Source: a virus
Lineage: Duplodnaviria; Heunggongvirae; Uroviricota; Caudoviricetes
Reading direction: 5' to 3' (one strand)
DNA: 64,000 bases
Virus record (IMG/VR): IMGVR_UViG_3300046522_000748
The notes beneath the pieces are model-generated. The model was not told where the DNA came from. It saw only the letters and a program-made list of their open reading frames with translations, and made no database searches. Positions 5,712 to 42,321 of this stretch are shown here, one piece after another; within the stretch, counting starts at the first letter, position 1; each line of letters starts with the position of its first letter. Position numbers and translations under genes: made by a program.

Positions 5712-6725
5712 ATGCGTCATATTGCTATTGCTGTGCTGGTCTCTGGTCTGCTTGCGGGCTGTGCTGTGAATCAACCTGAGCAAGCCCCCTCCAATCCTGT
5801 AGTCGCCCCTGTGGCTGCCCCTCAGGACGCCACAAGTAATCTGCCGCAGGTCGCTGTCTCTGAGGCTGACGTTTTGCTTCAGGATGCTTACCGCGCCGAA
5901 GAGCGTAAGGACATGGAGTCAGCATTGCCGCTCTATGAAGAGTCTGCGCGAAAAGGCAGTGCAAAAGCACACTATGAGCTGGCCCGTCTCTATGCACAGG
6001 GCGCTGATGGCGTAGTTAAGGATCTGGCGGTGGCGAACCGTCATTTGATCGAAGCGTCCAGCATGGGTAATGATGAGGCTACGCGTGTTTTGGCGTGGCA
6101 GTACCTGCGTGGAGCCGGTGTTGAAAAAAATCAGGTGAAAGCAGTCGAGCTTTTTGATCAGGCGGCAAAAACCAGCCTGCGAGCACAGCGTGAAGCTGGC
6201 ATGCTGTACGTGAATGCCTACCCGCAATACGCACTGAATGATTCGAAAAAGGGGCTGTCGTACTTGCACACGGCTACTCAAGCAGGTGATGCCGAATCCG
6301 CTTTTTATCTGTACAAAACCGTTACACAAATGGGTGCTCCAACGGATGAGTCCGATGCGGCCCTCGTGATGGCTGTGCAAAAAGGCTATCCAAAGGCATT
6401 GTTTCTGGCGGGCAGCGTGGCCATGAAACAAGGCAAGTACGAGCAGGCTAGTCAGATCTACCTGAAGGCTGCCATGAATGATGATGCGGCATCCATGTAC
6501 GAGTACGCGAACAACGTGCTGCTGAAGAAATTCAAATCCAATGAGCGCGAACTGGAAGCCTGCACATGGTTCGCCATTGCCGCATCAAAAAATAATGAAG
6601 CGTCGATCAATGAGCTGGTGGCTCAGGCAGGCCTGCGTCGTATGCTGGAGAAAAAACAGCCTGGGCGACTCGATAACATGATTGCCAGCACCAAGCAGTT
6701 GATTCGCCCGTGGAAAGCCGAATGA
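5712..6725 (+). CDS. Sel1/TPR-repeat lipoprotein
   Basis: Signal peptide ending in the lipobox LLAGC. Repeated Sel1-like units (AKAHYELARLYAQG; NDEATRVLAWQYLRG). AGGTG Shine-Dalgarno 7 nt before the ATG. Confidence 0.6.
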   Translation: MRHIAIAVLVSGLLAGCAVNQPEQAPSNPVVAPVAAPQDATSNLPQVAVSEADVLLQDAYRAEERKDMESALPLYEESARKGSAKAHYELARLYAQGADGVVKDLAVANRHLIEASSMGNDEATRVLAWQYLRGAGVEKNQVKAVELFDQAAKTSLRAQREAGMLYVNAYPQYALNDSKKGLSYLHTATQAGDAESAFYLYKTVTQMGAPTDESDAALVMAVQKGYPKALFLAGSVAMKQGKYEQASQIYLKAAMNDDAASMYEYANNVLLKKFKSNERELEACTWFAIAASKNNEASINELVAQAGLRRMLEKKQPGRLDNMIASTKQLIRPWKAE

Positions 6726-29898: not shown

Positions 29899-29931
29899 AA
29901 AAAAACCGGCAGCCCGATGGACTGCCGGTTT
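29899..29931 (-). terminator. rho-independent terminator downstream of tRNA-Thr
   Basis: Minus strand: CCGGCAG tccatcgggc CTGCCGG followed by TTTTTTT. Confidence 0.5.
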
Positions 29932-30012: not shown

Positions 30013-30329
30013 GTTGATGTGTTCATTGTATATATCTGAGCTAGGCTAGGCAAGCATTATTTCATATTTTCTTGATTATTTTATTGGATGTTTGGTCAGT
30101 TAAAAAAATGAATGCTAATGACATTCAGCCTGTGAACATAGTCGCCTTTCTTATGAATCGTTGGTGATAATGCAGGGAGGTCGCAGCATCTGGTTAGCTC
30201 GTGGCCGTAAAGCCAGGGGTTCCCCGACTGATCGTTGTTGCCTGATCACCGCTTCCACAGCCTTGTAGGCAAAGCTGCCGTCCGCACGTGGGGCCAGTAC
30301 CTACGGCAAGTCCACGCAATGCTCTTACG

Positions 30330-30446
30330 CTGCATTGGGAAAGATCGAAGCACGTCAAGGGTGACTGTTTCGCAGTCAAAAGGGAAGTAGCGACACGTCC
30401 CAGATGGTGCGTCTATCGATGTTTTCCAATGCATCCTCTTTCGAGG
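30330..30446. repeat. hairpin-capped inverted-repeat element (family copy 5)
   Basis: CTGCATTGGGAAA ... TTTTCCAATGCA (12-bp stem) followed by the hairpin CCTCTTTCGAGG. Confidence 0.4.
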
Positions 30447-30526
30447 AAGTTGGTTTTTACTGCAAAGCTTCGGCGTGATTATATGGAGCACTAGGCTATT
30501 TTGTCAATAACGAAAACATCAAGGCT

Positions 30527-30730
30527 TTAAATCGAGCAGGTTTTACGGAGCAATTCTGCCGATGGTACACTTGCCCTCACCTTTTCCTCAATTTCAATAT
30601 CGTATAGACGCATTCTCTCACGACTTTCTGCAAATCGCTTGTCGATTGCCGCAGTTTCTTCCTGTGACAACTTACCTGCATTGTATAGGCGCAATTTTTC
30701 TGTAATTTCAAGCAATGCGGCGAGGGACAT
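30527..30730 (-). CDS. hypothetical small protein
   Basis: 67-aa ORF. Confidence 0.3.
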   Translation of the reverse strand: MSLAALLEITEKLRLYNAGKLSQEETAAIDKRFAESRERMRLYDIEIEEKVRASVPSAELLRKTCSI

Positions 30731-30893
30731 TATTCTTACTTCCTGAGTTTTCGTTTAAAAGTTTAATTATACTCACAAGAAATAGTGGAGAGGCATTAAA
30801 CCGAGACGGGACTTTAACCCGTCGAACTCTGTCGTCATCACAGTGCCCTTTTCGCTCGGCCACCGATCTAATGCCTTTCCAGTACAGCCTGAA

Positions 30894-31316
30894 TTAAGAA
30901 CTTTGTGTCTCTTCTATGGGTGTCCACTTTGTGGCGTCCAACTCATGGGCTTTCCACTGATCGATACTGCCATCACCAAAGATTGTCATAATAATGTAGT
31001 CACCACATTTACGGCCATCAGTAACCTGTAGCTCATCAGGGACATAATGGCTTTTGAGCTTGGCAATTCTCTGTTTATTTTCATCAAGCAGCCAATAAAG
31101 TCCAGCATCGCAGACTTTGTAATACACACGAGCCTCAATTCCGGCTGGCCAGTTTAAAACATGACCTGAACGAAGATCGATAGTTGGCATCCAGCCATCG
31201 CCTTTCCGAAATGGAATCTTGCCTCCGGTATCAGCAACACCGTTGATATAGCCGTCTTCCCAATATCGAACGCCAGCATCTAACTCAATGAATCGCGCTT
31301 GTTTGATGTCAAACAT
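30894..31316 (-). CDS. hypothetical protein (140 aa)
   Basis: ORF with plausible composition. Confidence 0.45.
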   Translation of the reverse strand: MFDIKQARFIELDAGVRYWEDGYINGVADTGGKIPFRKGDGWMPTIDLRSGHVLNWPAGIEARVYYKVCDAGLYWLLDENKQRIAKLKSHYVPDELQVTDGRKCGDYIIMTIFGDGSIDQWKAHELDATKWTPIEETQSS

Positions 31317-31571
31317 ATTCTTGATTAATCCCGCTGCTTTTCACCAGTTTACACTATTTGCATAGGGGATCAGCTTATTACCAAGCTGATCTCCAATACA
31401 ACCTCTTGCGAGGTGATTGGGCGGTCTCTCCCGCCGTCACGGCACTACCTTCCGTCCTCGTGATACCTTTGGCGTTTCAGGTGCGTGGACTTCGATTTAT
31501 CTAATCGTCACCGTACTAAGCACTAGGCATTCTTTAGCATTTGGCCTCATTGCTGAAACCGCATGCGGGTA

Positions 31572-32417
31572 TTACTTCACATTGATGCCTGGGTTAGCGC
31601 CCGGCGCCATGATGATGCAGCTCGCACCCTTGGATTCGCAGGCCGTGGCGTACGCATTGATCGCGGCCAGTTGAATCACCTGCTCAGGGGTGTATTTCAT
31701 TTTATTTGCATACTCCTGGTCAGCATCGGCACGGGAGCCTTCCGCTTTCTTGCGCTTGATTTCAGCCTGATCGGTGGCATCCATCGTTTTCGCACGTTGC
31801 TGCTCTGCTGCTGTTTTGTTCATTTGAGAAAGCACGTCTTCATTAGGACGACCGCGACCCATGTTGAAGTCTGTAATGATAACACTAATACCGTCTTTTT
31901 TGGCGCGATCATTCAGCTCAACAAGCAGATTTTTTTCCATTTCCGCCGCAACTTTTGGATCAGTCATGATCTCTGTCATAGTGTGTGCTTTTGTTTGGTC
32001 GCGGAAGGAACTCGACCAAGGTTGGCGCAGATTGTTGTTGAACCACTCTTCGCCTTTGTTCTGAATCAGCTTACGAGCATCGGTAACCTGTACCTGAATG
32101 GAAGTGGAGAAGTCCAGGAGGATGTTGTCCGAGGTTGGCAGATCGTCAAACTGCATTGGGATTGTTTGTGGAGTCATCTGCACTGGAATCGCGATGGTGG
32201 TGTTCCACTCACGGCTACGAGTGCCTGATTTTTGTGTTTCTGGACGAACGCCTTCATGGCCCCAGAAATACGGTCGATCCACAATCACACTTTCGTAGCC
32301 GTTTTCTGTAATAACGGAATACTGGAATGTCGCCCAAATAAAAGCATAAATCACGGCGAAGATGAGCAGGAAGCCGCCTAAAAGCCCTACTGTCGCATTG
32401 CCACGCTGATTGTTCAT
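31572..32417 (-). CDS. SPFH/band-7 (stomatin/prohibitin-like) membrane protein
   Basis: N-terminal TM helix, then a band-7-like core and a charged coiled-coil tail (AAEQQRAKTMDATDQAEIKRKKAEGSRADADQ). Confidence 0.5.
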   Translation of the reverse strand: MNNQRGNATVGLLGGFLLIFAVIYAFIWATFQYSVITENGYESVIVDRPYFWGHEGVRPETQKSGTRSREWNTTIAIPVQMTPQTIPMQFDDLPTSDNILLDFSTSIQVQVTDARKLIQNKGEEWFNNNLRQPWSSSFRDQTKAHTMTEIMTDPKVAAEMEKNLLVELNDRAKKDGISVIITDFNMGRGRPNEDVLSQMNKTAAEQQRAKTMDATDQAEIKRKKAEGSRADADQEYANKMKYTPEQVIQLAAINAYATACESKGASCIIMAPGANPGINVK

Positions 32418-32612
32418 TAGATTCCCTTAATATATGTCTTCTGTCATCTCATGACGACTTAAGTTACGCGCATATAATATCCAATTATCCAATATATGTA
32501 CATTTATTTTTAGGCCCTCACGAATGACAGCGTGGTTGACTTTTCTTGCAGCTTCCATATAATGGCCTCATTCTTCACAGAGATATCATCTCTGCGCAAA
32601 CCAAGGAGCTTT

Positions 32613-32999
32613 ATGAAATCTGGTTTTCTGTTCACCGCAGCTTTCTGCCTGACAGCTGTCGTCACCCCTGCTCTCGCTGAGCCTACAGTTGTCTCCAAAA
32701 AAGGCCATAAGGTGATGTACATTAGTGATGTACACCCCGGCAACGAAGGCCTGCTGCCTGAAGCTGAGCAGATGGCGAAGCAATTCGGCACCTATGATCA
32801 ATTGGCCAACAGCATTTCGATTGATCAGGCATTCGTTTGGGTCGGGACGATCATTACAAAGGATGCAGATGCCTGCACAGAAAGCACGCATGCCATTGAT
32901 CAGTTTATCGAGAAGGAAATTAAAACCGGTAAGACGGTATCGCGTGTTGGGAAGCCTGTGATGAAGATTACCAACAAGCCGATTGCCTGCCCGGCATGA
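32613..32999 (+). CDS. small secreted protein
   Basis: AAGGAG Shine-Dalgarno, then a signal peptide MKSGFLFTAAFCLTAVVTPALA. Confidence 0.45.
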   Translation: MKSGFLFTAAFCLTAVVTPALAEPTVVSKKGHKVMYISDVHPGNEGLLPEAEQMAKQFGTYDQLANSISIDQAFVWVGTIITKDADACTESTHAIDQFIEKEIKTGKTVSRVGKPVMKITNKPIACPA

Positions 33000-33079
33000 G
33001 GCCGATTTGGCGGGGCGGCGTCCCGCCACATTGAGATCTGTGCCAGTCAACTGATTGTGTTTTCTATTCAATGTGAAAC

Positions 33080-33103
33080 AAAAAGCCCGCTCAATGGCGG
33101 GCT
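33080..33103 (-). terminator. rho-independent terminator
   Basis: Minus strand: AGCCCGC cattga GCGGGCT followed by TTTTT. Confidence 0.45.
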
Positions 33104-33125
33104 AGATTGTGACAGGCGTTCTGCG

Positions 33126-33386
33126 TCACATATTGAACGCGTCCAGGGCCTCTTTACAGGTCATCTGGTAGCCGAGCGAGGCTCCTTCTGAATCACCTCG
33201 CATTGGTCCTGTATCAGTCATGACCCAAGGTACTTCGTTTTCACCCATCGTAAACGCTAGACCGTTCTGGTCACAGGCAACCCATTGTGATCGAGAAGAA
33301 AGCTGGTCGGCTGCGGCATACGCCAATCCACAAAGCCCAAGAGCGATGAGAGCCGCCAAGATGCGCAGCTGAATTCGTATTTTCAT
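33126..33386 (-). CDS. small secreted protein (start at MKIRIQLRIL)
   Basis: Signal peptide ALIALGLCGLAYAA. Confidence 0.4.
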   Translation of the reverse strand: MKIRIQLRILAALIALGLCGLAYAAADQLSSRSQWVACDQNGLAFTMGENEVPWVMTDTGPMRGDSEGASLGYQMTCKEALDAFNM

Positions 33387-33404
33387 GTTTTCACTCGATT
33401 GATG

Positions 33405-33563
33405 TGTACCGGTTCTGCATTGGAAACCCATGTGAAGAGACTCGAACTCTCAGATCTCGGCAGTTTGTCCCGACCGTGGATCGCGCGCCTTCCCGGTTCT
33501 GAGTCCCGGTTTAGGTGCCGCCTGCGTCTACCAATTTCGCCACACATGGGTTTCCAATGCAGC
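33405..33563. repeat. hairpin-capped inverted-repeat element (family copy 1) enclosing a tRNA-like gene
   Basis: 20-bp perfect IR CTGCATTGGAAACCCATGTG (33405-33424 / 33532-33551), then the hairpin CCTCCTAGGAGG (33552-33563). Confidence 0.5.
33417..33538 (-). tRNA. tRNA-Leu-like (type II-like) gene, ~122 nt, with ~35 nt extra between D and T arms; no CCA
   Basis: Minus strand: acceptor CCATGTG/CACATGG (7 bp). 5' TGGCGAAATTGGTAGACGC matches the tRNA-Leu D arm. T arm GAGAG-TTCGAGT-CTCTT. I could not resolve the anticodon arm. Confidence 0.35.
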
Positions 33564-33744
33564 CTCCTAGGAGGATGTTTTGGGCAGGGCTGGAGGCAAA
33601 TTCCAGCTTTTCAAAGTGCCTTGGCCACGGGTTACATCACGTATAGCTTAATGAAAAGCAGCCCCGTTATTATGCGACAGCCGTTGCCGATTGAACGACA
33701 TTCCTGCTTTTGAATTATACAATATTTTCTTAAAAATATTATAT

Positions 33745-33838
33745 GCATCGGCAGAATGATTTGGTGATGGATTCGAACCATCGTCCCGGAATACCGCGCC
33801 GCTGATCAAACGGCCCTGCCAAATCACTCTCCGATGCA
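33745..33838 (-). ncRNA. tRNA-like hairpin element (GCATCGG-stem family, copy A)
   Basis: ~19-bp imperfect stem GCATCGGcAGAaTGATTTGG/CCAAATCAcTCTcCGATGC enclosing a T-arm-like hairpin GATGG-ATTCGAA-CCATC and an anticodon-like hairpin. It cannot be folded into a full cloverleaf. Confidence 0.3.
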
Positions 33839-34678
33839 CTCTCGTGAGAGAGTGTGGTCGGCATACGTATGCCGATTGATGCACATGACCGGTGCTTATC
33901 TCCGGCTTGGCGGATATGCCACTCCCAGGCATTGCTGCCTGCCATTTTCCACCTATGCCATGGTTGGCCCAGAGGCAGTAGCGCTTCAGCTAGCGCATCC
34001 ATATGCATCGGGGAGTGATCAAGCACAAGCCAATCACTTTCCGATGCACTCTCGTGTGAGAATGCAGTAAAACGTGTGACACAAATGACCGGCACTGAAC
34101 TCCGGCTTTAAGGCGCCAAATCCACCATGCCGTTTCGGGTTTGCTTCCAGGTGGCAATTAAGCTCTCAGTTATCTGGGCTGCGCATCAGCCTACGCATTC
34201 ATTCGCATCGGGGTGTGATCTGGCCGGTGCTGGTCTCCGGCATTCGTGGTTATCTGGTGGCCTGCAACCTTCAGGCTCTACGAACTGGGCACAACCCCAA
34301 CGTCAGATTCGCATTACTTGGAATCACCGAACAGCTCCCGGATGTTTGTGGTTACGGGAGTGCCTGTCCGATGTGTTCCCCACGATCAAGCTTGCTTGCG
34401 CATCAGCCTACGCATTCAGATCACACCCCGATGCGCTCTCAAAGAGAGTAATCGGGCAGTTAGCGACAGGCTGTCGTGCAGTGATTCTGTGTCCGAAGGA
34501 GGTCGGACCGGCATGCAAGGCCATTACGCCATTCACCCACCTATCGGGCTCTGTCACCCCTTCATAACGCGTTCGGGGTTTTACGCGGCGATCCAGACTT
34601 ACTTTTATATGGGGTTCCAGGGTCGCATCTCGCCCATTTCGTTTTGGCTTACGCCTAATTCTTGCGGTGCATCTGAAG

Positions 34679-34802
34679 CTGTATTGGAATGTCGGTCCAC
34701 ACCATTTTGTGCAATCAACGTCCGGGTGTTCGCCACAATCCGATTGCTCTGGAGATGCTTTTTTAATGACCCGCCGACATTCCGATACAGCCTCTTTCGA
34801 GG
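34679..34802. repeat. hairpin-capped inverted-repeat element (family copy 2)
   Basis: CTGTATTGGAATGTC (34679-34693) pairs with GACATTCCGATACAG (34776-34790), including one G.U pair. Followed by CCTCTTTCGAGG (34791-34802). Confidence 0.45.
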
Positions 34803-35110
34803 TGATCGGGCCGTCTTTCCGGCTGTCGCAGACCAACGATTGAGCCGGTAGGTCTGAACGGCTATCCCTTTATGCGCTTGGGAGTCCAGCGGCCGGTTAA
34901 CCCCGGTCAGGATTCTTTGTGACACTCATCTTACGTGAGGAGTGTGGTATTCGGGTGACGCTGATGGCCGGTACTGAACTCCGGCTTGACGCTCTCCTGG
35001 GCGTGTTAGCGTATTTCGCCTCGCAAGTGGTCTCTCACCACCTCTTCCCTTTCGGGTTGCCCCAGCCAGTTGCGCATCAGCCTGCGCATTCATCAACATC
35101 GGTGTTGCTA

Positions 35111-35198
35111 TGGAGCGGGTACATGGATTCGAACCATCAGCCGCTAAGCCGCCTTCATCCACTAGTAGGATTTGCCCCCGTTGGGCTCGGTTCCCCGC
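35111..35198 (-). tRNA. aberrant tRNA-like gene (~88 nt) with encoded CCA
   Basis: 3' end ...GATGG-TTCGAAT-CCATG-TACCCGC-T-CCA and 5' GCGGGGA (6/7 acceptor pairs). The D and anticodon arms are non-canonical (anticodon-like loop TACTAGT). Likely a pseudo-tRNA or a type II variant. Confidence 0.3.
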
Positions 35199-35203
35199 AA
35201 ATC

Positions 35204-35274
35204 TGGCGCCCCTACGTGGAGTTGAACCACGCGACTGACGCATGATCAGTGCGACCGTCAATCCCTCCAGGGCA
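35204..35274 (-). tRNA. aberrant short tRNA-like gene (~71 nt) with encoded CCA
   Basis: T arm CGTGG-TTCAACT-CCACG; 3' acceptor TAGGGGC-G-CCA; anticodon-like stem-loop ACTGA-TCATGCG-TCAGT; rudimentary D arm. Confidence 0.3.
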
Positions 35275-35416
35275 AATTCTAATGCAAATGGCCGGTACTG
35301 AACTCCGGCTCAGCCAATCTTTTCTGTTAGGCAGTTTCAACGGCATGCCGTCTCATATACCTGTAAACCCTTTTGGCCCATCCAGTTTCTCAGTGCGCCT
35401 CAGTCGGCGCCAACAT

Positions 35417-35491
35417 CTGCATTGGTAGGTTTACCGAATTGAGCCGCGCTAAACGGTTTCCAGTGAACCTCCAATACAGCCTCTTTCGAGG
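35417..35491. repeat. hairpin-capped inverted-repeat element (family copy 3, short)
   Basis: CTGCATTGGTAGGTT (35417-35431) pairs with GAACCTCCAATACAG (35465-35479), then CCTCTTTCGAGG (35480-35491). Confidence 0.4.
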
Positions 35492-35524
35492 CTAATCCTG
35501 CCAGCCGCTTCTTTGTCTTGCCAT

Positions 35525-35770
35525 TTACACGTGCCGATTGATTTTGAGCGTCCATTCGCGGTCGCCATCTTCTGACAGCGCGACCTCGTGAGACTTTTTC
35601 AGCGCTCTGACAATGACGCTCTCTGTGGCCAGGACAGGCTCTTTGTCTTCATCGTCACCAATTTCCGCAGCCAAATACAGCTTTTCTGCCGCCACTTCCT
35701 TAACCAGCGCTTTGCGGGTCGTATAGACAGTGATCTCGTAGGCTTCGTTAACGGTTGTGTAAATCGTCAT
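35525..35770 (-). CDS. possible small acidic protein (81 aa) inside the RNA island
   Basis: Only sizeable ORF in this region with protein-like composition; weak Shine-Dalgarno. Confidence 0.25.
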   Translation of the reverse strand: MTIYTTVNEAYEITVYTTRKALVKEVAAEKLYLAAEIGDDEDKEPVLATESVIVRALKKSHEVALSEDGDREWTLKINRHV

Positions 35771-35852
35771 CAGAAATTCCGTAATCTGTTTGGTGTGCAA
35801 TCGCACAGTGCATTGGGGTGAAATCTGACCGGATGTGATCCCGGCATGTGCT

Positions 35853-35920
35853 GGTGGACTCGAACCACCGACGCGCCTTTTGCGAGGCCGCTCTACCGAC
35901 TGAGCTACGCACTACGCTAT
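35853..35920 (-). tRNA. tRNA-like pseudogene (5' half GCGTAGCTCAGTCGGTAGAGCG plus T arm GGTGG-TTCGAGT-CCACC)
   Basis: Canonical D arm and T arm, but neither the acceptor nor the anticodon stem can be paired. Confidence 0.3.
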
Positions 35921-36029
35921 CTGTTCACCGGGCCTAGGAATCCCGTCACCGTCAAGCCTATTGAGTCACAAACTCACTTTCAGATTCCACCCCAATGCAT
36001 CCCCAAAGGGGCAGTGGACTTAAAACTGC

Positions 36030-36175
36030 ATTAGTGGAGGCAGCGAAAACTACATGCCATGCTTCGGATATTATCCGAGTCAGGGAATTGAACCCCGGAG
36101 ACACCCAATTTGATGCTTGCCGAGTGTTCGATGCTTCCCTAATGCAGTTTTGTTTACAAGAGCATGTTCTGCTCT
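36030..36175. repeat. inverted-repeat element variant (CTGCATTAG ... CTAATGCAG) enclosing T-arm-like sequence
   Basis: 9-bp IR with the same CTGCATT core. Inside lies CCGGGG-TTCAATT-CCCTG. Followed on the minus strand by the hairpin ACAAGAGC-AGAACAT-GCTCTTGT. Confidence 0.3.
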
Positions 36176-36187
36176 TGTTGGGCTATT

Positions 36188-36216
36188 CTAGCGAGACTAG
36201 ATGTCTGTGTCAATAT
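36188..36216 (-). promoter_or_regulatory. sigma70-like promoter reading into the RNA island (TTGACA-N17-TAGAAT)
   Basis: Minus strand: TTGACA cagacatctagtctcgc TAGAAT. Confidence 0.35.
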
Positions 36217-36257
36217 CATTTTTAGGTTTTTTGAGTGTATTCGTATTTGATACTGAT

Positions 36258-36575
36258 TTAGTGGATGGCAAGCACATTACTTCGCTGAATCATCAAAATA
36301 TCATCTATCTGTAATCCGTGATAATTTGTATTTTTAAGCACGTTGGCAACTGAGCCGTACATGTGAAGTGGCCCTACTGCCAGAAGATCCACCCAGAACG
36401 CTTCACTGCCTTTTTTGCCGTAATCGCCTACGCCCACTTTCACATAATCGCCAACCTCTAATGAATAAAGTTCGTCTGCGTCCGGAAGCGTTATGGCAAT
36501 GTCTGGCTTGCCTGCGATTTCTTGTGCGTCATGGAGATCTGCGTGTTTAACTGAATTTGGGTCAAATGTGGTCAT
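36258..36575 (-). CDS. hypothetical protein (105 aa)
   Basis: ORF. Confidence 0.45.
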   Translation of the reverse strand: MTTFDPNSVKHADLHDAQEIAGKPDIAITLPDADELYSLEVGDYVKVGVGDYGKKGSEAFWVDLLAVGPLHMYGSVANVLKNTNYHGLQIDDILMIQRSNVLAIH

Positions 36576-36634
36576 GGTTCGCTCTAATAATGTGAGTGGT
36601 CGTTAGCGGCAAGTGGTTTGAATTTCATATATTA

Positions 36635-37108
36635 TCAAATGTGCGCTTCAAGCGCCTCTTTCTTGCGTCGGAAGATTTGCTTCTTCCTGCTTAAGACTTC
36701 GTTGTCGATGTCGCCAATGTCATGGCCTCGTTTTTCATGAGTAATCAGCGCCGCAATCATCGCATTATTAAGCTTGGTAAAAGTGCCGATATAAGTGGAT
36801 TCACCCTCATCGTTGGAGAGATATGGCACGGACTCCTCGTAATAAACGGAGAATTCATTGGGGGTGTGGAACAGTCGAACAACCTCGGCATGGCCACCAT
36901 AATGCTCGCCAAAATTATTACCTTGAGTCGGTGTGGTGCAAATGCGCACGCCGACTAGTTCTCCTTCCTCGACGTTCCGATAGTTGTACACGCCCTGATA
37001 GACCGAAAATCCATGAAAATCGTTTGCTGATTTCACGGATGCCAATCGCACAAATTCTTTGTCCTTTAGCATTTCGTCAATTTGTTCGTCATTTATTAAG
37101 TCTTTCAT
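36635..37108 (-). CDS. hypothetical protein (start at MKDLINDEQ with GAGGG Shine-Dalgarno)
   Basis: ORF 36635..37171; the start is placed at the in-frame ATG with a Shine-Dalgarno. Confidence 0.45.
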   Translation of the reverse strand: MKDLINDEQIDEMLKDKEFVRLASVKSANDFHGFSVYQGVYNYRNVEEGELVGVRICTTPTQGNNFGEHYGGHAEVVRLFHTPNEFSVYYEESVPYLSNDEGESTYIGTFTKLNNAMIAALITHEKRGHDIGDIDNEVLSRKKQIFRRKKEALEAHI

Positions 37109-37237
37109 GATTCGCCCTCTGTAGCCTCTGTATTGTTCAATTATACAGGAATCTCGTAACTCATACCTCATGTCACTATCATTGACATATGCCTGGATGA
37201 TGGTTAAAATATCGCTAATTCAACACAGGTGCGGATT

Positions 37238-37633
37238 ATGATTACTCCAGAACTGTTGCAACAAAAGGCTCAACAGGCATCAGGCATAGAACAACATTTT
37301 TTGACCCTGGCTCAGCAATTTATGGTGCGCCAAAACATGAGTGGCGCCGCTGCTGTCGGCTCATTCATCGATCAAAACCTGAAGGTTCCAAAAGCTGGTG
37401 AGCGTGTTTTGATGCCCGCTGGTGTGGAAATTCGAACGACTGGCAAGAAAGGCGTCTTCACGTCGAAGCGCAAGCAGATTGTGACGGTTCACCGGGTAAG
37501 TGATGGCGGTCTCTATGAGGAGCGCGGAGAGGTCGTGGAGATCCCTGCATCCATCATCTGGGCTGGCGCCGGAGGTTATTGGTGCGAGGTCGCTGTCCGT
37601 GACTGGGCGAGCGCTGCGGGTATAGTCGGTTGA
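37238..37633 (+). CDS. hypothetical protein
   Basis: AGGTG Shine-Dalgarno 8 nt before the ATG. Confidence 0.45.
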   Translation: MITPELLQQKAQQASGIEQHFLTLAQQFMVRQNMSGAAAVGSFIDQNLKVPKAGERVLMPAGVEIRTTGKKGVFTSKRKQIVTVHRVSDGGLYEERGEVVEIPASIIWAGAGGYWCEVAVRDWASAAGIVG

Positions 37634-37671
37634 CAGCAGGGTGCTGCCCTACCCTGACTTTAAACTCAAAC

Positions 37672-37714
37672 TAAAAAGCCGATGCCCTTCTTCTGGTCAT
37701 CGGCTTTTGCGTTT
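37672..37714. terminator. bidirectional rho-independent terminator
   Basis: AAAAAGCCGATG ...13 nt... CATCGGCTTTTGCGTTT, between convergent genes. Confidence 0.55.
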
Positions 37715-37723
37715 GGTTGTGTG

Positions 37724-39373
37724 TTAGGAAATCCGGAATTTACCAACCATCTGATTCAGTGAAACAACCACCTTGTCGAGGTCAATCAGGGAGTGTTGAG
37801 CCTCTTGAATGACATCGCGGCTTTGTTGGCTACCGGCGCTGATCGACTCAGCCGCTTTGGCCATCTCGGCGGTGGCTTGTGACTGTTCACTGGTCGCATG
37901 GTTGATGACTTGAATCTTTTCAACAATGGAATTCATGTCGGCGCGAATCCCTTCGATCTGGGTAATGGCCTGATCAGATAGAAGTACCCCATTGTTAACG
38001 GAATGGCTGGTTTTGGCCATCCGCTGGGTGGCCTGTGCGGTTTCCTCACCCACTGCCTTGATCATGTCGGCGATCTGCACGGTCGCTGTGGAGGTGCGGC
38101 TTGCAAGAGTTCTGACCTCATCAGCGACTACAGCAAATCCACGGCCTGATTCACCCGCCCGAGCGGCCTCAATCGCGGCGTTGAGCGCCAGAAGATTTGT
38201 TTGGTCAGCGATGGAGCGAATCACGTCAACGATGTTGCTGATGTCTTTAGAGCGTGCCTGGAGGTTGCTGATAACTTGTGACAGGTCATTGACCTGATTG
38301 CTGATGGCTTCGATCTCTCCCGCTACTGCGCCAACGGCTTTGGAGCTGCTTTGCGACTTCTCACTCGACTCCTGAACCACTCTGGCAGTCTCATGCGTGC
38401 TTTCAGCAATGTTGTGCATGGTGGCCGTAATTTCTTCGATAGTTGCAGCCGTTGTGGTCGCCTTATCGCTCTGCTCCTGAGAGTCGGCATGAATGACTCT
38501 CATCATTTGGCTCATGTCATGAAAGCCGGTTTTGAGCTTAGTGGCCTCATCTCGGATGACTGCAAACATCTCACGCAAGTCGCCAACAAATCTGTTGAAG
38601 GCAACGGCCATTTGGCCGGTTTCATCCTTGCTGTTCACCGGCAGCATGCGGGTCAAATCCCCTTGGCCAGAAGACAGGTCATTGAGTGCCTGGAGAAAGC
38701 TATTCAGTGAGCGAGATACCAGATTTCCAAGCAGGAATGCAGCGAGTAGCGCGATGATGAATGCGACGCCGCCCACCAGGGCCACTTCCATCACGACGCG
38801 TTTGCGTGCTTCGGTCACGTCTTTTAGATCGGCGTCGGCGGCAATCACGTATTTATCACCATTGGGGGCAATGGCGCGCACGTAGAGCGTTCTGAACTCG
38901 CCATCTGCTGATGAGTACTCAAGATTCCCGGTAGCGCCGGTCAGCAGCACGCTTTTGACGATATCCTTGGCTTCCTGATTATCATAGGTGTGCAAGTAGT
39001 AATTAACGCCCTTGCTAAGTTCATCGTCAGTCAGGGATGAGGTGGCGAATACCACATCGCCGCTTTCATTGAGAACAAAGGTATAGAGATAAGGCAGGCC
39101 TAGTTTTTTGGAGAGCTTGGTCAGCATCAGCGACTGGTCGGTGCCAAAAGAGTCGTCTTTCCCTGAGCGACCAACATTTTGGTGAACCTTCGGATCGACA
39201 GAGAATTCAACGGCATGAATTGCAGTCAGCAGCTTTGTGTCAATTTCATCCATCGCCATCTTTTCTGCGTTACCCCAAAAGGCTGATGCGAAAATGGCGA
39301 TGAGAATTAATGACACGGCGATAAATGAAACCCTGACTTTGCTATGAAAGCGCAGATTGTTGAACCACTGCAT
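37724..39373 (-). CDS. methyl-accepting chemotaxis protein (MCP)
   Basis: Two TM helices around a periplasmic domain, a HAMP region, then the highly conserved MCP signalling domain ([35 protein letters not shown]). Confidence 0.8.
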
Positions 39374-39573
39374 GGATGCTCCGATATATTTTATATTTAA
39401 TGATTAAGTTTGGCTGGCGCGGACTATACGCACCGCATTTAAAGGGGTCAACAGAGGACTGAGGGGTGGACTTACCACTGGTCGGCAAAAGGTGCTGGTT
39501 TTTTGTTGAAGTAACAAAAGCGCTGTTGCAGGGCTGATGGCGTGACAAATTCGAGCATGCATTTATGTCGGAA

Positions 39574-39610
39574 ATGAAAAAGCGGATACCAAATTGCTCT
39601 GGTATCCGCT
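39574..39610 (-). terminator. strong rho-independent terminator (minus strand)
   Basis: GCGGATACCA gagcaatt TGGTATCCGC followed by TTTTT on the minus strand. Confidence 0.55.
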
Positions 39611-39905
39611 ACATGTCGGTCGCACTACGCATCCCTATTGCTAGGGGCACTGAGTCTGAATCTCAGCCCGTTGCCAACTCTTTTCCGGTTAACCCACTAC
39701 TACCCGGATTTATCTTCGCCTTATGGGGAAAGCTAAACACAATGGCGTCCGCTGATCTCACGCTTTTGGCCAGTCATCTGTCGAGCGCACGTCGCTCCAA
39801 GCCTTGTGGGCGCAATGGCGGGTCACTTTCACTGGGATGTCCACCGCTATATTTCTCAGGCCGGGCATGGTTACCCATGCGTGATCGCACCTGAACAGCA
39901 CTTCA
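39611..39905 (-). ncRNA. candidate ~300-nt small RNA between IR element copy 4 and the terminator
   Basis: No minus-strand ORF of 60 aa or more. Bounded upstream by the hairpin/IR element and downstream by the terminator. Contains internal hairpins (CATGG-gtaac-CCATG). Confidence 0.3.
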
Positions 39906-39959
39906 TTGTATTGGAATGCGATGCAGTGGCATGACATTCCAATACAACCCCTTACGGGG
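39906..39959. repeat. hairpin-capped inverted-repeat element (family copy 4)
   Basis: TTGTATTGGAATG (39906-39918) pairs with CATTCCAATACAA (39935-39947), a 13-bp perfect stem, followed by CCCCTTACGGGG (39948-39959). Confidence 0.45.
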
Positions 39960-41439: not shown

Positions 41440-42321
41440 TTAATCCTTTAGAAACATTCCGCAGCTCGCTTTTACATCAAAGCCGACTTTTGGCACGATT
41501 CTCCAGCTTTCTGCCTTGATCAGCGAGCGCAGGATCTCGGTATTGCGCTGAATGACCTCTTCGCACGGCTCCTTGCCATATTTTGCCGAATATGGGTTAT
41601 AGCGAACGATGTTCAGGTTCACCTTCAGGTCGCGCTCGTTGATCGCATTGGCAATGGCGACCATATCAGCTTCAGAGTCATTCTCGCCTTCGATGAAGGC
41701 GAAATGAATCTTTGGCACTTTATGGCTGAAATCTTGCCATGCCTTAAGCATATCGAGGCCATGTTCAGCCGTGTGCGCTCGGGCCAGCCAACGCTTACGG
41801 AACGATGGGTTCATGCTGTAGATCGAGTAATAGATCTCTGGATGCACCTCTGGAAAAATGTCTTCCAGTCGCAAGTCACCCATCGAGGTTGGAAAAATAG
41901 ACGACACCAGGAATTTGGATTCCAGGCCATGAGCTTGCGACTTCGCTGCCAGTCCATTGAGCAATTGCGCGCTGTCACTCAGCAGCAATGGGTTGTTCAG
42001 TGGCTCGCCCCTGGCCATGAAGTTCCAGTGGATGAGCTTGGCCGGAGCTTGGGTGTCGTAATGCTCCAAGATGCGTTCGGCCTGCTGCATGAAGTCGTCC
42101 ATTTCAGCATTGTCGAATTGATTCTGGCCGGTCGAGGTCAGGTGGCAAAATCGGCACGCTTGATCGCAGCCAGATTGCGAGGACAGGTAGCCAATGATGT
42201 ACTCAGGCACCCGGCGAACGTAACGGTTTTCATAGCGACCGACATTCGGCGCAGGGTACTCAAAGTTGACAGACTGATCCTGCTGACTGAAGTGGGCTTT
42301 GAAAATGATGTTCTGGCTCAT
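41440..42321 (-). CDS. RlmN/Cfr-family radical SAM RNA methyltransferase homologue, lacking the N-terminal domain
   Basis: SSQSGCDQACRFCHLTSTGQN matches RlmN [21 protein letters not shown]. Further matching blocks: MARGEPLNN, VSSIFPTSMG, IEGENDSEAD, LKVNLNIVRYNPYSAKYG, and the second catalytic Cys in DVKASCGMF. Confidence 0.6.
   Translation of the reverse strand: MSQNIIFKAHFSQQDQSVNFEYPAPNVGRYENRYVRRVPEYIIGYLSSQSGCDQACRFCHLTSTGQNQFDNAEMDDFMQQAERILEHYDTQAPAKLIHWNFMARGEPLNNPLLLSDSAQLLNGLAAKSQAHGLESKFLVSSIFPTSMGDLRLEDIFPEVHPEIYYSIYSMNPSFRKRWLARAHTAEHGLDMLKAWQDFSHKVPKIHFAFIEGENDSEADMVAIANAINERDLKVNLNIVRYNPYSAKYGKEPCEEVIQRNTEILRSLIKAESWRIVPKVGFDVKASCGMFLKD

Follow-up and report, generated by a model that had tools for sequence, protein, structure and literature searches.

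What is encoded in the long noncoding stretches between the tRNA genes of a bacteriophage? The question is raised by IMG/VR record IMGVR_UViG_3300046522_000748, a virus of the class Caudoviricetes, of which a stretch of 64,000 nucleotides (nt), here called the window, was analysed. In the annotation of phage tRNA regions one usually lists the tRNA genes and passes over the remainder. About 2.5 kilobases (kb) of such "empty" DNA in the window proved to be densely packed with structured RNAs, at least 18 in number, on a common plan. Two types of units are interleaved: clamp units, in which a long helix (the clamp) encloses a variable sequence (the cargo) and follows a leader hairpin, and a second, tRNA-like type, called X. 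The architecture is an RNA-level one, covarying, strand-specific and noncoding; it is widespread in Pseudomonas phages, and its cargo is hypervariable. An earlier note, made from the sequence of the window alone, had described the clamp units as hairpin-capped inverted repeats and had left two readings, a conserved RNA module which brackets stable RNAs, or an insertion of the type of miniature inverted-repeat transposable elements (MITEs) which has captured a tRNA. With the former, the helix covariation, the strand, the co-orientation with genes and the structured cargo reported here all agree. Our interpretation, which we hold with slightly better than even confidence, is that the units are minus-strand RNA cassettes for stable, tRNA-scaffolded RNAs, which would be cut from polycistronic transcripts.

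Clamp units in the window

Eleven clamp units, designated M1 to M7 and M9 to M12, were found between 30.3 and 40.0 kb. The hairpin and inverted-repeat architecture was seen at all six positions listed earlier, both in a repeat search and on reading of the sites, and the copies lie on a single strand as had been stated, 11 of 11 being alike in orientation. The repeats are thus real, but the count of five or six copies was too low, since further units are present at 31359–31400, 33744–33838, 34004–34048, 34204–34435 and 35809–35999. The repeat search yielded a perfect inverted repeat of 20 nt (33415–33434/33543–33562, 100%), inverted repeats at 34675–34695/34774–34794, 39906–39924/39929–39947 and 36022–36039/36134–36151, and others at M2, M6 and M10, which had not been listed. 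It also revealed a family of 29-nt repeats consisting of the 3' arm and the hairpin, with six copies (30423, 31390, 33551, 34779, 35468 and 39936).

In a scan for the core sequences, pairs of TGYATYGG and CCRATRCA with proper spacing were confined to 30.3–40.0 kb of the 64-kb window. When a strict unit was defined as a core pair 28–330 nt apart, with at least 12 pairs and at most two mismatches, eight such units were counted, compared with a mean of 0.2 and a maximum of 2 in 200 first-order Markov simulations of the window. The 11-mer core by itself is enriched only mildly, with 20 occurrences versus 11.1 expected at up to one mismatch, or about twofold. The signal thus resides in the architecture rather than in the word. 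The z-scores of the predicted folds range from –2.1 to –6.6. One candidate, M8 (35095–35286), was rejected as a clamp unit; it holds two tRNA-like sequences instead (see below).

Leader and clamp helix

On the RNA strand, a unit begins with the motif CCCGAnCA and a short hairpin, followed by the strand UGCAUYGG, which opens the helix, then by the cargo and by CCRAUGCA, which closes it. The clamp helix has a length of 12–26 base pairs (bp) and encloses a cargo of 4 to about 200 nt. The leader comprises an optional upstream hairpin, CCCGAnCA (in four window units CCCAAnCA) and the short hairpin, mostly CCUC-GAAA-GAGG, with other sequences in some units. The architecture of an inverted repeat with an adjoining hairpin was therefore described correctly before, but the conserved unit is asymmetric and extends past the hairpin to CCCGAnCA or CCCAAnCA, often with a further hairpin beyond. 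GNRA tetraloops, which had been ascribed to the hairpins in general when read on the minus strand, occur in only five of ten leader hairpins (GAAA three times, GCAA and GUAA once each), but the other loops are CUAG, UCAC, ACAC and, twice, UUU.

The common leader (M7, 34791–34810, and most prophage leaders) contains GAUCACCUC, which pairs with GAGG in the hairpin and which is identical to the 3' end of 16S rRNA (anti-Shine-Dalgarno region). Mimicry of this region was considered and rejected, since it is not kept in leader variants (GAGCA, GACCA and other hairpins); the match may be a coincidence.

Differences between the stem arms had been thought to be compensatory, and a covariation analysis across 28 distinct units bears this out. 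In a two-arm alignment of these units 92.3% of cells are paired versus 69.8 ± 1.2% in shuffles, the former value being inflated by the choice of units with at least 13 pairs. Cells with double changes number 115 versus 34.6 ± 4.2, a value reached by none of 500 shuffles, and compensatory changes are found at 14 of the 18 pairs. Sliding the partner strand by 1–3 columns lowers the pairing to 25–43%. Outside clamp positions 6 and 9, G·U exceeds A·C by 18 to 5 when the minus strand is read.

Strand, transcription and coding status

The minus-strand reading agrees with the setting, as the units share their strand with the tRNA genes and lie behind promoter-like sites; moreover, T-arm motifs (GGUUCGAAUCC) and GNRA loops are correct on the minus strand only. 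A sigma-70-like promoter (TTGACA-18-TATAAT, 12/12) is located at 30478–30507 (minus strand), about 30 nt upstream of the leader hairpin of M1, and a promoter-like site (TTGACA-17-TAGAAT, 11/12) at 36185–36213 (minus strand), directly upstream of M11. Terminators follow downstream of units, on the same strand, at 29931–29903, 33103–33084 and 39610–39581. Ten open reading frames (ORFs) overlap the units and match no Pfam or PHROG family, and the homologous DNA of deposited phage genomes is unannotated. Covariance models for the family would stop spurious ORF calls across the units.

X units and chaining

Units of type X, about 130–150 nt long, are interleaved with the clamp units, and at least five are present in the window, including one inside M6. 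Their plan consists of a 7-bp closing (acceptor) helix, a 3-nt linker, a D-like hairpin with a 5-bp stem and the loop GGCUGA, a variable centre, estimated from the length range of X at about 20 to 140 nt, and a T-like hairpin with the stem GCCGG/CCGGC and the loop AGAUCAGCA. In a collapsed alignment of 24 variants, 94.7% of cells are paired, compared with 84.9 ± 0.8% in shuffles. All seven acceptor pairs are formed in every sequence, three of them showing 10–12 double changes. Between the two loops, GCUGA could pair with UCAGC; 96.7% of these cells are paired, but with only a single compensatory change, in X1.

About 61 of 77 variants (hand tally) have RCC(N), often RCCA, after the closing helix, and X is therefore a tRNA-like RNA with an acceptor end. 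A 7-bp acceptor stem with discriminator and CCA was found in X units only and is lacking in clamp units. Together these features support a cloverleaf-like fold, as predicted from the sequences, without a standard anticodon arm. The pattern of the 5' part of X matches at least 120 viral contigs, and the family has no match in Rfam 15. A relaxed structural search for X gave mostly false positives and served only for listing loop combinations.

Neighbouring units are chained. The 3' core of a clamp is often also the 5' strand of the closing helix of the next unit, e.g., CCGAU-GCAGAUG with CAUCUGC, and where the 3' core of M9 has A in place of G, the 3' strand of X1 has U in place of C. For M1 and M12, complements of the 3' cores are present 160–170 nt downstream, which suggests two more large clamped RNAs; their extents, at 30169–30336 and 39736–39912 (both minus strand), are deduced from complementarity only. 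The first would be closed by AAUGCAG/CUGCAUU and the second by AAUACAAUG/CAUUGUGUU. The 5' strands are the 3' cores of M1 and M12, respectively. The former candidate has AUCACCA after the closing helix and lies upstream of tRNA-Thr, the latter lies upstream of the terminator at 39581–39610.

Cargo RNAs

From 90 of 194 sources 110 clamp units were collected, and the cargos of the 90 unique units fell into 48 clusters. The commonest cargo in Pseudomonas prophages is that of M7, termed cargo A, with identities of up to 96%. It possesses covarying helices of its own, with compensatory changes at 12 pairs, and, as judged by eye, a pseudoknot, CGCCC/GGGCG, which is swapped for CGGGU/ACCCG in another subtype. 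A frame of 36 codons which runs over cargo A is broken in one subtype. Downstream of cargo A a hairpin, GGCCACUGCCUGCCCAGUGAGC, is conserved in the temperate Pseudomonas syringae phage Aurca01 (locus L065, at about 5940–5960 of the locus) and at many other cargo-A loci; a strong ribosome-binding site comes next, with a mini-ORF of two codons, AUG AAG UAA, after it in Aurca01.

Several cargos resemble tRNAs. A tRNA-Leu-like sequence with a continuous 20-bp helix had been assigned to the first of the listed copies; it belongs to the second, at 33405–33563 (M3). In this cargo a D arm of the Leu type and a canonical T arm are combined with an insert in the anticodon arm, and ARAGORN called a tRNA at 33426–33550 only when an intron of 47 nt was allowed. 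The cargo of M4 is tRNA-like and D-armless, with a hairpin with the loop UUGAUCA, a small hairpin and the T arm GAUGGUUCGAAUCCAUC. In M10 a near-canonical tRNA-like sequence (35847–35912) has a shortened anticodon arm (4-bp stem, 5-nt loop); its score of 27.7 bits against the Rfam tRNA model is the best of any unit, under the threshold of 29 bits. At locus L093, in another contig, canonical D and T arms surround an expanded centre. A standard anticodon arm (5-bp stem, 7-nt loop with U33 and an anticodon) was found neither in the centre of X nor in M3 and M10. None of the units was called as a canonical tRNA by ARAGORN in default mode. At 47 canonical tRNAs of the same loci no flanking helix was detected (at most 7 pairs), and the clamp is thus specific to non-canonical RNAs; the canonical tRNAs of these loci all end in CCA, among those listed.

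A role of the cargo as guide or antisense RNA against other phages was considered and rejected: in a BLAST search of a phage collection with about 30 representatives, every match was to a homologous unit in unannotated DNA, and targets were not found.

Distribution in phages and prophages

The window phage shares the family with phages and prophages of Pseudomonas, on well over a hundred contigs. The exact pattern of 3' core plus CCTCTTTCGAGG was found in 64 contigs of IMG/VR, nearly all of which have the full architecture, and a scan of one genome per species gave 14 contigs, 10 of them from Pseudomonas other than P. aeruginosa. The sole annotated match in a search with leader plus core was phage Aurca01. 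Three units are situated there in an unannotated gap of 925 nt in the leftward early operon, on the gene strand, downstream of a cI-like repressor gene (about 3 kb away from the array) and upstream of erf and ssb. Homologous cargos are present in unannotated DNA of Cruim01, Orimi01, Orisa01-03, Medea1, phiPSA1, psageK9 and PseuP_224. Cultured phages of P. syringae and P. protegens are included (among them Aurca01, Medea1 and phiPSA1), and Aurca01, being temperate, should be a tractable experimental system.

The units have the same orientation as most of the flanking long ORFs at 160 of 192 related loci. Recurrent neighbours are a CI-type repressor, DUF1654, a TerB-like protein and small hypothetical proteins. 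Sharing with other contigs at the sequence level is limited to 34166–34840 of the window (M6, segment Z and M7), with 76–96% identity; the other units of the window belong to the family by architecture only. M6 is 76% identical to locus L093. Segment Z (34476–34655, minus strand), about 180 nt of noncoding sequence between M7 and M6, is 86% identical to the viral contigs L093 and L013 and may be another conserved RNA.

A region of about 1 kb in Citrobacter phage phiNP (locus L194, at about 35.9–36.7 kb) and in E. coli prophages is likewise unannotated and lies downstream of a repressor-like gene. It contains T-arm-like hairpins and a stretch of 115 nt with 74% identity to one Pseudomonas cargo. 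Segments of this region were present in 1779 of 5426 complete genomes of E. coli; among the matches listed, most lacked annotation. Enterobacterial prophages may hold analogous arrays with a different clamp.

Proposed maturation and function

As regards processing and the role of the cargos, we infer the following. The array would be transcribed from strong promoters into one polycistronic precursor. RNase P, 3' trimming and CCA addition would act at the X and tRNA-like units, and a nuclease specific for double strands, such as RNase III, would cut the clamps, as in rRNA operons and in T7 early RNA. The cargo could thereby be freed as a stable small RNA, protected by its paired ends and the leader hairpin. 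A tRNA-type scaffold, with a canonical T arm, sometimes a D arm, and the anticodon arm replaced or expanded, would present the variable domain, and the hypervariable cargos would be effectors, probably in conflicts between phage and host or between phages.

A more specific version, to which we would assign no more than a modest chance, is that of a modular RNA-cassette system in which the conserved leader and clamp, with tRNA-type scaffolds, would express and stabilise rapidly diversifying structured RNAs as decoys, sponges or inhibitors, and whose cargos would be swapped between phages by recombination at clamp and leader. Such a system could be an RNA counterpart of the accessory islands for protein anti-defence. 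Decoys could perhaps mimic the acceptor end or the elbow of tRNAs and titrate tRNA-targeting defences, tRNA-processing enzymes or factors of competitor phages. As to their kind, the units would belong to phage tRNA-like or processed stable RNAs, with a real chance that they represent effector RNAs of a new class. Should the cargos act as effectors, phages would possess a large, diverse class of small RNAs together with a natural system for expressing them on tRNA scaffolds; if the units are processing signals only, they would define the maturation of long untranslated transcripts in these phages.

Several points weigh against the interpretation as cassettes for stable RNAs. The processing steps are proposed by analogy, and M2 and M12 are essentially cargo-less, which is in better agreement with a cis-acting role. 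Neither the 64 window proteins (Pfam and PHROGs) nor ten recurrent flanking protein clusters of the prophage loci (Pfam) include a dedicated protein partner which accompanies the units; reverse transcriptase, Ro, RtcB, integrase, transposase or a dedicated nuclease were not found in these sets. Besides the selection of units mentioned above, many clamp units are related by descent, and the alignments of clamp and X units are constructs, from which the variable interior was removed. Over the whole helix there is no excess of G·U (18) over A·C (19). Mismatches of the type C·A or A·C on the minus strand are present at clamp position 6 in 25 of 61 units and at position 9 in 12 of 28, and these would be G·U on the opposite strand. 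Furthermore, the 5' core is able to pair with the upstream CCGA or CCAA motif, which covaries with the core: in the window CCAA is found upstream of the UUGG core in 4/4 units and CCGA upstream of the UCGG core in 3/4, M5 being without the motif. The 3' core is able to pair with the next unit. Because both cores have alternative pairings, the base of the clamp could be absent from the mature fold; judging from these complementarities, its outer 8 bp may be transient or replaced.

Alternative explanations

The units could be cis-acting elements of mRNAs or operons with incidental cargo, either RNase III sites for processing and stability or structures for anti-termination or insulation. RNase III sites are present in T7 early RNA, and put RNA and rrn boxBAC are anti-termination structures, which enable RNA polymerase to pass through long untranslated stretches. 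M2, between two protein genes, and the similarly short M12 would suit this explanation, as would the position of units within operons, with ORFs on either side, both in the window and in Aurca01. The leader hairpin, often with a GAAA loop, resembles boxB in this respect, and the alternative core pairings would suit a switch. Most cargos, however, are 40–200 nt long, with their own conserved and covarying structure, and the tRNA features of many of them would be lost from an incidental spacer. Eleven copies in 10 kb are far above what anti-termination needs. The array of Aurca01, situated about 3 kb downstream of the cI-like gene and not next to an early promoter, comprises several units, for which reasons anti-termination of the nutL type was rejected as the main role. 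Altogether we regard a purely cis-acting function as unlikely, with some weight left to it by the short units.

Sites for cassette exchange or recombination at the DNA level, i.e., folded single strands similar to integron attC sites or hot spots of homologous exchange, appear improbable. Hypervariable cargo between conserved ends would be expected of them, a given leader or upstream hairpin is found with one cargo in one contig and with another cargo elsewhere, and the 670-bp block at 34166–34840 is shared, at 76–96% identity, by the present phage and temperate phages to which it is otherwise unrelated. The balance of G·U and A·C over the whole helix would also be expected if both strands mattered. 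Against this explanation stands the lack of IntI, integrase or other recombinase families among the window proteins and the ten flanking clusters. The attC core motifs are absent, the cores being TGCATYGG/CCRATGCA versus RYYYAAC/GTTRRRY, and the cassettes are ORF-less. GNRA loops, T arms, RCC(A) tails and the excess of G·U outside two positions indicate RNA. Exchange at conserved flanks is expected of any conserved sequence, without a dedicated mechanism.

Insertion of MITE-like elements into tRNA regions, with capture of tRNA fragments, was the second reading of the earlier note and is now very improbable. Terminal inverted repeats with a common core of 8–11 nt are indeed present, an 18-nt arm, GCAUCGGAGUGUGAUCUG, is common to many prophage copies, and the distribution among related phages is patchy. 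Correia/NEMIS and other MITEs are transcribed and cut by RNase III, and the clamp units resemble them as short elements, bounded by inverted repeats, which form long RNA hairpins in transcripts. Copies of a MITE, however, have a common interior, are inserted in either orientation and are flanked by target duplications. The interiors of the clamp units are unrelated, and their arms differ between copies but covary within a copy; the units have one orientation in 11 of 11 copies, with the co-orientation with genes described above, and no target-site duplication at the junctions. Conserved sequence outside the repeat is found on the leader side only, which renders the unit asymmetric, and no transposase is encoded among the window proteins.

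That the units are functionless, decaying tRNA pseudogenes with chance palindromes is hardly credible, although several cargos are degenerate tRNAs missed by tRNA detectors and most window units lack a sequence-level homologue elsewhere, because it is contradicted by conservation (cargo A with its leader is 75–96% identical across dozens of contigs) and by the strong covariation in clamp and X units, besides the excess of strict units over expectation.

Comparison with known systems

The architecture could not be matched to any known element in the earlier note, and this still holds with respect to Rfam 15 and the open-access literature. When the window and 24 related loci were searched against Rfam 15 with gathering and permissive thresholds, only canonical tRNAs passed. 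GOLLD, ROOL, HEARO, known ribozymes, Y RNA, C4, TwoAYGGAY and CRISPR repeats are thus ruled out as Rfam defines them. No published description of the units was found in open-access full text, exact sequence strings included.

Stems of rRNA operons and T7 RNase III sites are familiar cases in which a flanking helix of about 20 bp brackets a stable RNA in a polycistronic transcript. The clamp units share with them the bracketing helix, short hairpins before the stems and interspersed tRNAs, and their helices of 12–26 bp around structured cargo correspond to the approximately two turns of double-stranded RNA around a stable RNA which characterize RNase III stems. They differ by the conserved helix base UGCAUYGG/CCRAUGCA, the small (16–200 nt), hypervariable cargo and the chains with shared strands; cutting by RNase III is predicted at most.

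T4 species 1 and 2 are two stable, tRNA-like, non-decoding RNAs among the tRNA genes of a phage. The present units are likewise phage-encoded, tRNA-like, non-decoding and situated amid tRNA genes; they differ by their number of at least 18, by the spread of the family over well over a hundred Pseudomonas phage contigs and by clamp and leader, and no link by sequence or Rfam was found.

Bacterial Y RNAs (YrlA) are reportedly tRNA mimics which are bound by Ro/Rsr and are also present in phages. A long helix of 5' and 3' ends which carries a tRNA-like domain, and mimicry of T and D arms, are common to both, but the ends of M3 leave from the acceptor side and not from the anticodon side. Matches to Y RNA or YrlA in Rfam were absent up to E = 10, as were TROVE/Rsr and RtcB among the 64 window proteins.

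In engineered tRNA scaffolds the anticodon arm is replaced by a structured domain, which provides stability and correct processing. M3, M4, the L093 cargo and the X units resemble natural versions of such scaffolds. The natural units have, in addition, a long clamp and a leader hairpin, and their stability and processing are putative.

Arrays of noncoding RNAs accompany the UG27 reverse transcriptases of Bacteroides prophages and template cDNA hairpins (Minerva preprint, 10.64898/2026.09.22.753630). These arrays are similarly variable and consist of structurally conserved, sequence-diverse prophage RNAs. In contrast to them and to retrons, no reverse transcriptase (RVT, Pfam) is encoded in the window or in the ten flanking clusters.

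Positions of the units

All units are on the minus strand and are given in the order of their coordinates. The clamp of M1 (30331–30433, z = –3.9), with the helix UGCAUUGGAAAACAUCGA/UCGAUCUUUCCCAAUGCA, encloses a structured cargo of 67 nt and follows the leader hairpin UCCUCGAAAGAGGA (30434–30447). M2 is a cargo-less minimal unit, flanked by an SPFH gene and an ORF of 140 amino acids (aa); its clamp hairpin at 31359–31400 has the lowest z-score (–6.6), and upstream are the leader hairpin CCUCGCAAGAGG (31402–31413), CCCAAUCA (31414–31421) and a further hairpin (31420–31435). The perfect 20-bp clamp of M3 (33416–33561) runs on into the tRNA-Leu-like acceptor stem; its leader hairpin is at 33563–33574 and its upstream hairpin at 33589–33607. 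M4 (33744–33838, z = –5.3) has a clamp of 19 bp and a leader hairpin at 33838–33853.

X4 (33878–34009) has the closing helix GAUGCAUAUG/CAUGUGCAUC, a D-like hairpin at 33981–33996 and a T-like hairpin at 33888–33906. It is followed by M5, a short clamp hairpin (34004–34048, z = –4.9) with the leader hairpin at 34050–34061, and by X3 (34078–34209) with the closing helix GAUGCGAAUGA/UCAUUUGUGUC, the D-like hairpin at 34181–34196 and the T-like hairpin at 34088–34106. M6 (34204–34435) has a clamp of 19–20 bp, which encloses the X-type RNA mentioned above (D-like hairpin 34398–34413, T-like hairpin 34223–34241), and is preceded by the leader hairpin CUCUCUUUGAGAG (34436–34448), CCCGAUUA (34449–34456) and an upstream hairpin (34464–34476). 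The clamp of M7, with cargo A, is at 34680–34789; the leader hairpin CCUCGAAAGAGG (34791–34802), CCCGAUCA (34803–34810) and an upstream hairpin (34810–34823) adjoin.

In X2 (34957–35100) the closing helix GAUGUUGAUG/CAUCAGCGUC is followed by ACCC, and the D-like and T-like hairpins are at 35072–35087 and 34967–34985, respectively. The two tRNA-like sequences at 35101–35280, which had been taken for M8, contain the T arms GUGGUUCAACUCCAC and GAUGGUUCGAAUCCAU and have the encoded ends ...GCCA and ...UCCA; they were called by neither ARAGORN nor Rfam. X1 (35281–35423) shares sequence with M9, the 5' strand of its closing helix, AAUGCAGAUG, overlapping the 3' core of that unit; its D-like hairpin (35395–35410) has the loop GACUGA and its T-like hairpin (35291–35309) the loop AGUUCAGUA. 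The clamp of M9 is at 35418–35478 (z = –5.9), with the leader hairpin GCCUCGAAAGAGGC at 35479–35492.

M10 (35809–35999) has a clamp of 20 bp with 151 nt inside and the leader hairpin CCCCUUUGGGG at 36001–36011. M11 (36027–36146, z = –5.3), which had been listed as a degenerate variant, consists of a long irregular helix with the core UGCAUUAG/CUAAUGCA, a T-arm-like sequence, CGGGGUUCAAUUCCCUG, within the helix, and a 5' hairpin at 36156–36178. M12 is a short clamp hairpin (39907–39946, z = –6.0) with the leader hairpin CCCCGUAAGGGG at 39948–39959 and CCCAAC before the hairpin.

Genome setting and neighbouring genes

The window is phage DNA, and protein family scans revealed rIIA and rIIB; the identity of rIIA to deposited proteins is at most 33%. 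No close relative was found among 50,697 phage records in a near-identity search with 12 kb, the sole match being tRNA-Thr. Six canonical tRNA genes were detected in the window by ARAGORN, all on the minus strand.

Within the region of tRNAs and noncoding RNAs, a methyl-accepting chemotaxis protein of 549 aa is encoded at 37724–39373 (minus strand), with HAMP and MCPsignal domains (E = 7e-42); it belongs to PHROG 8572 and is unusual for a phage. A radical SAM ORF is present at 41440–42321. One window protein carries a SocA/Panacea antitoxin domain, and R2K ATP-grasp, RNase T-type exonuclease and dCTP deaminase domains were found on other proteins of the window.

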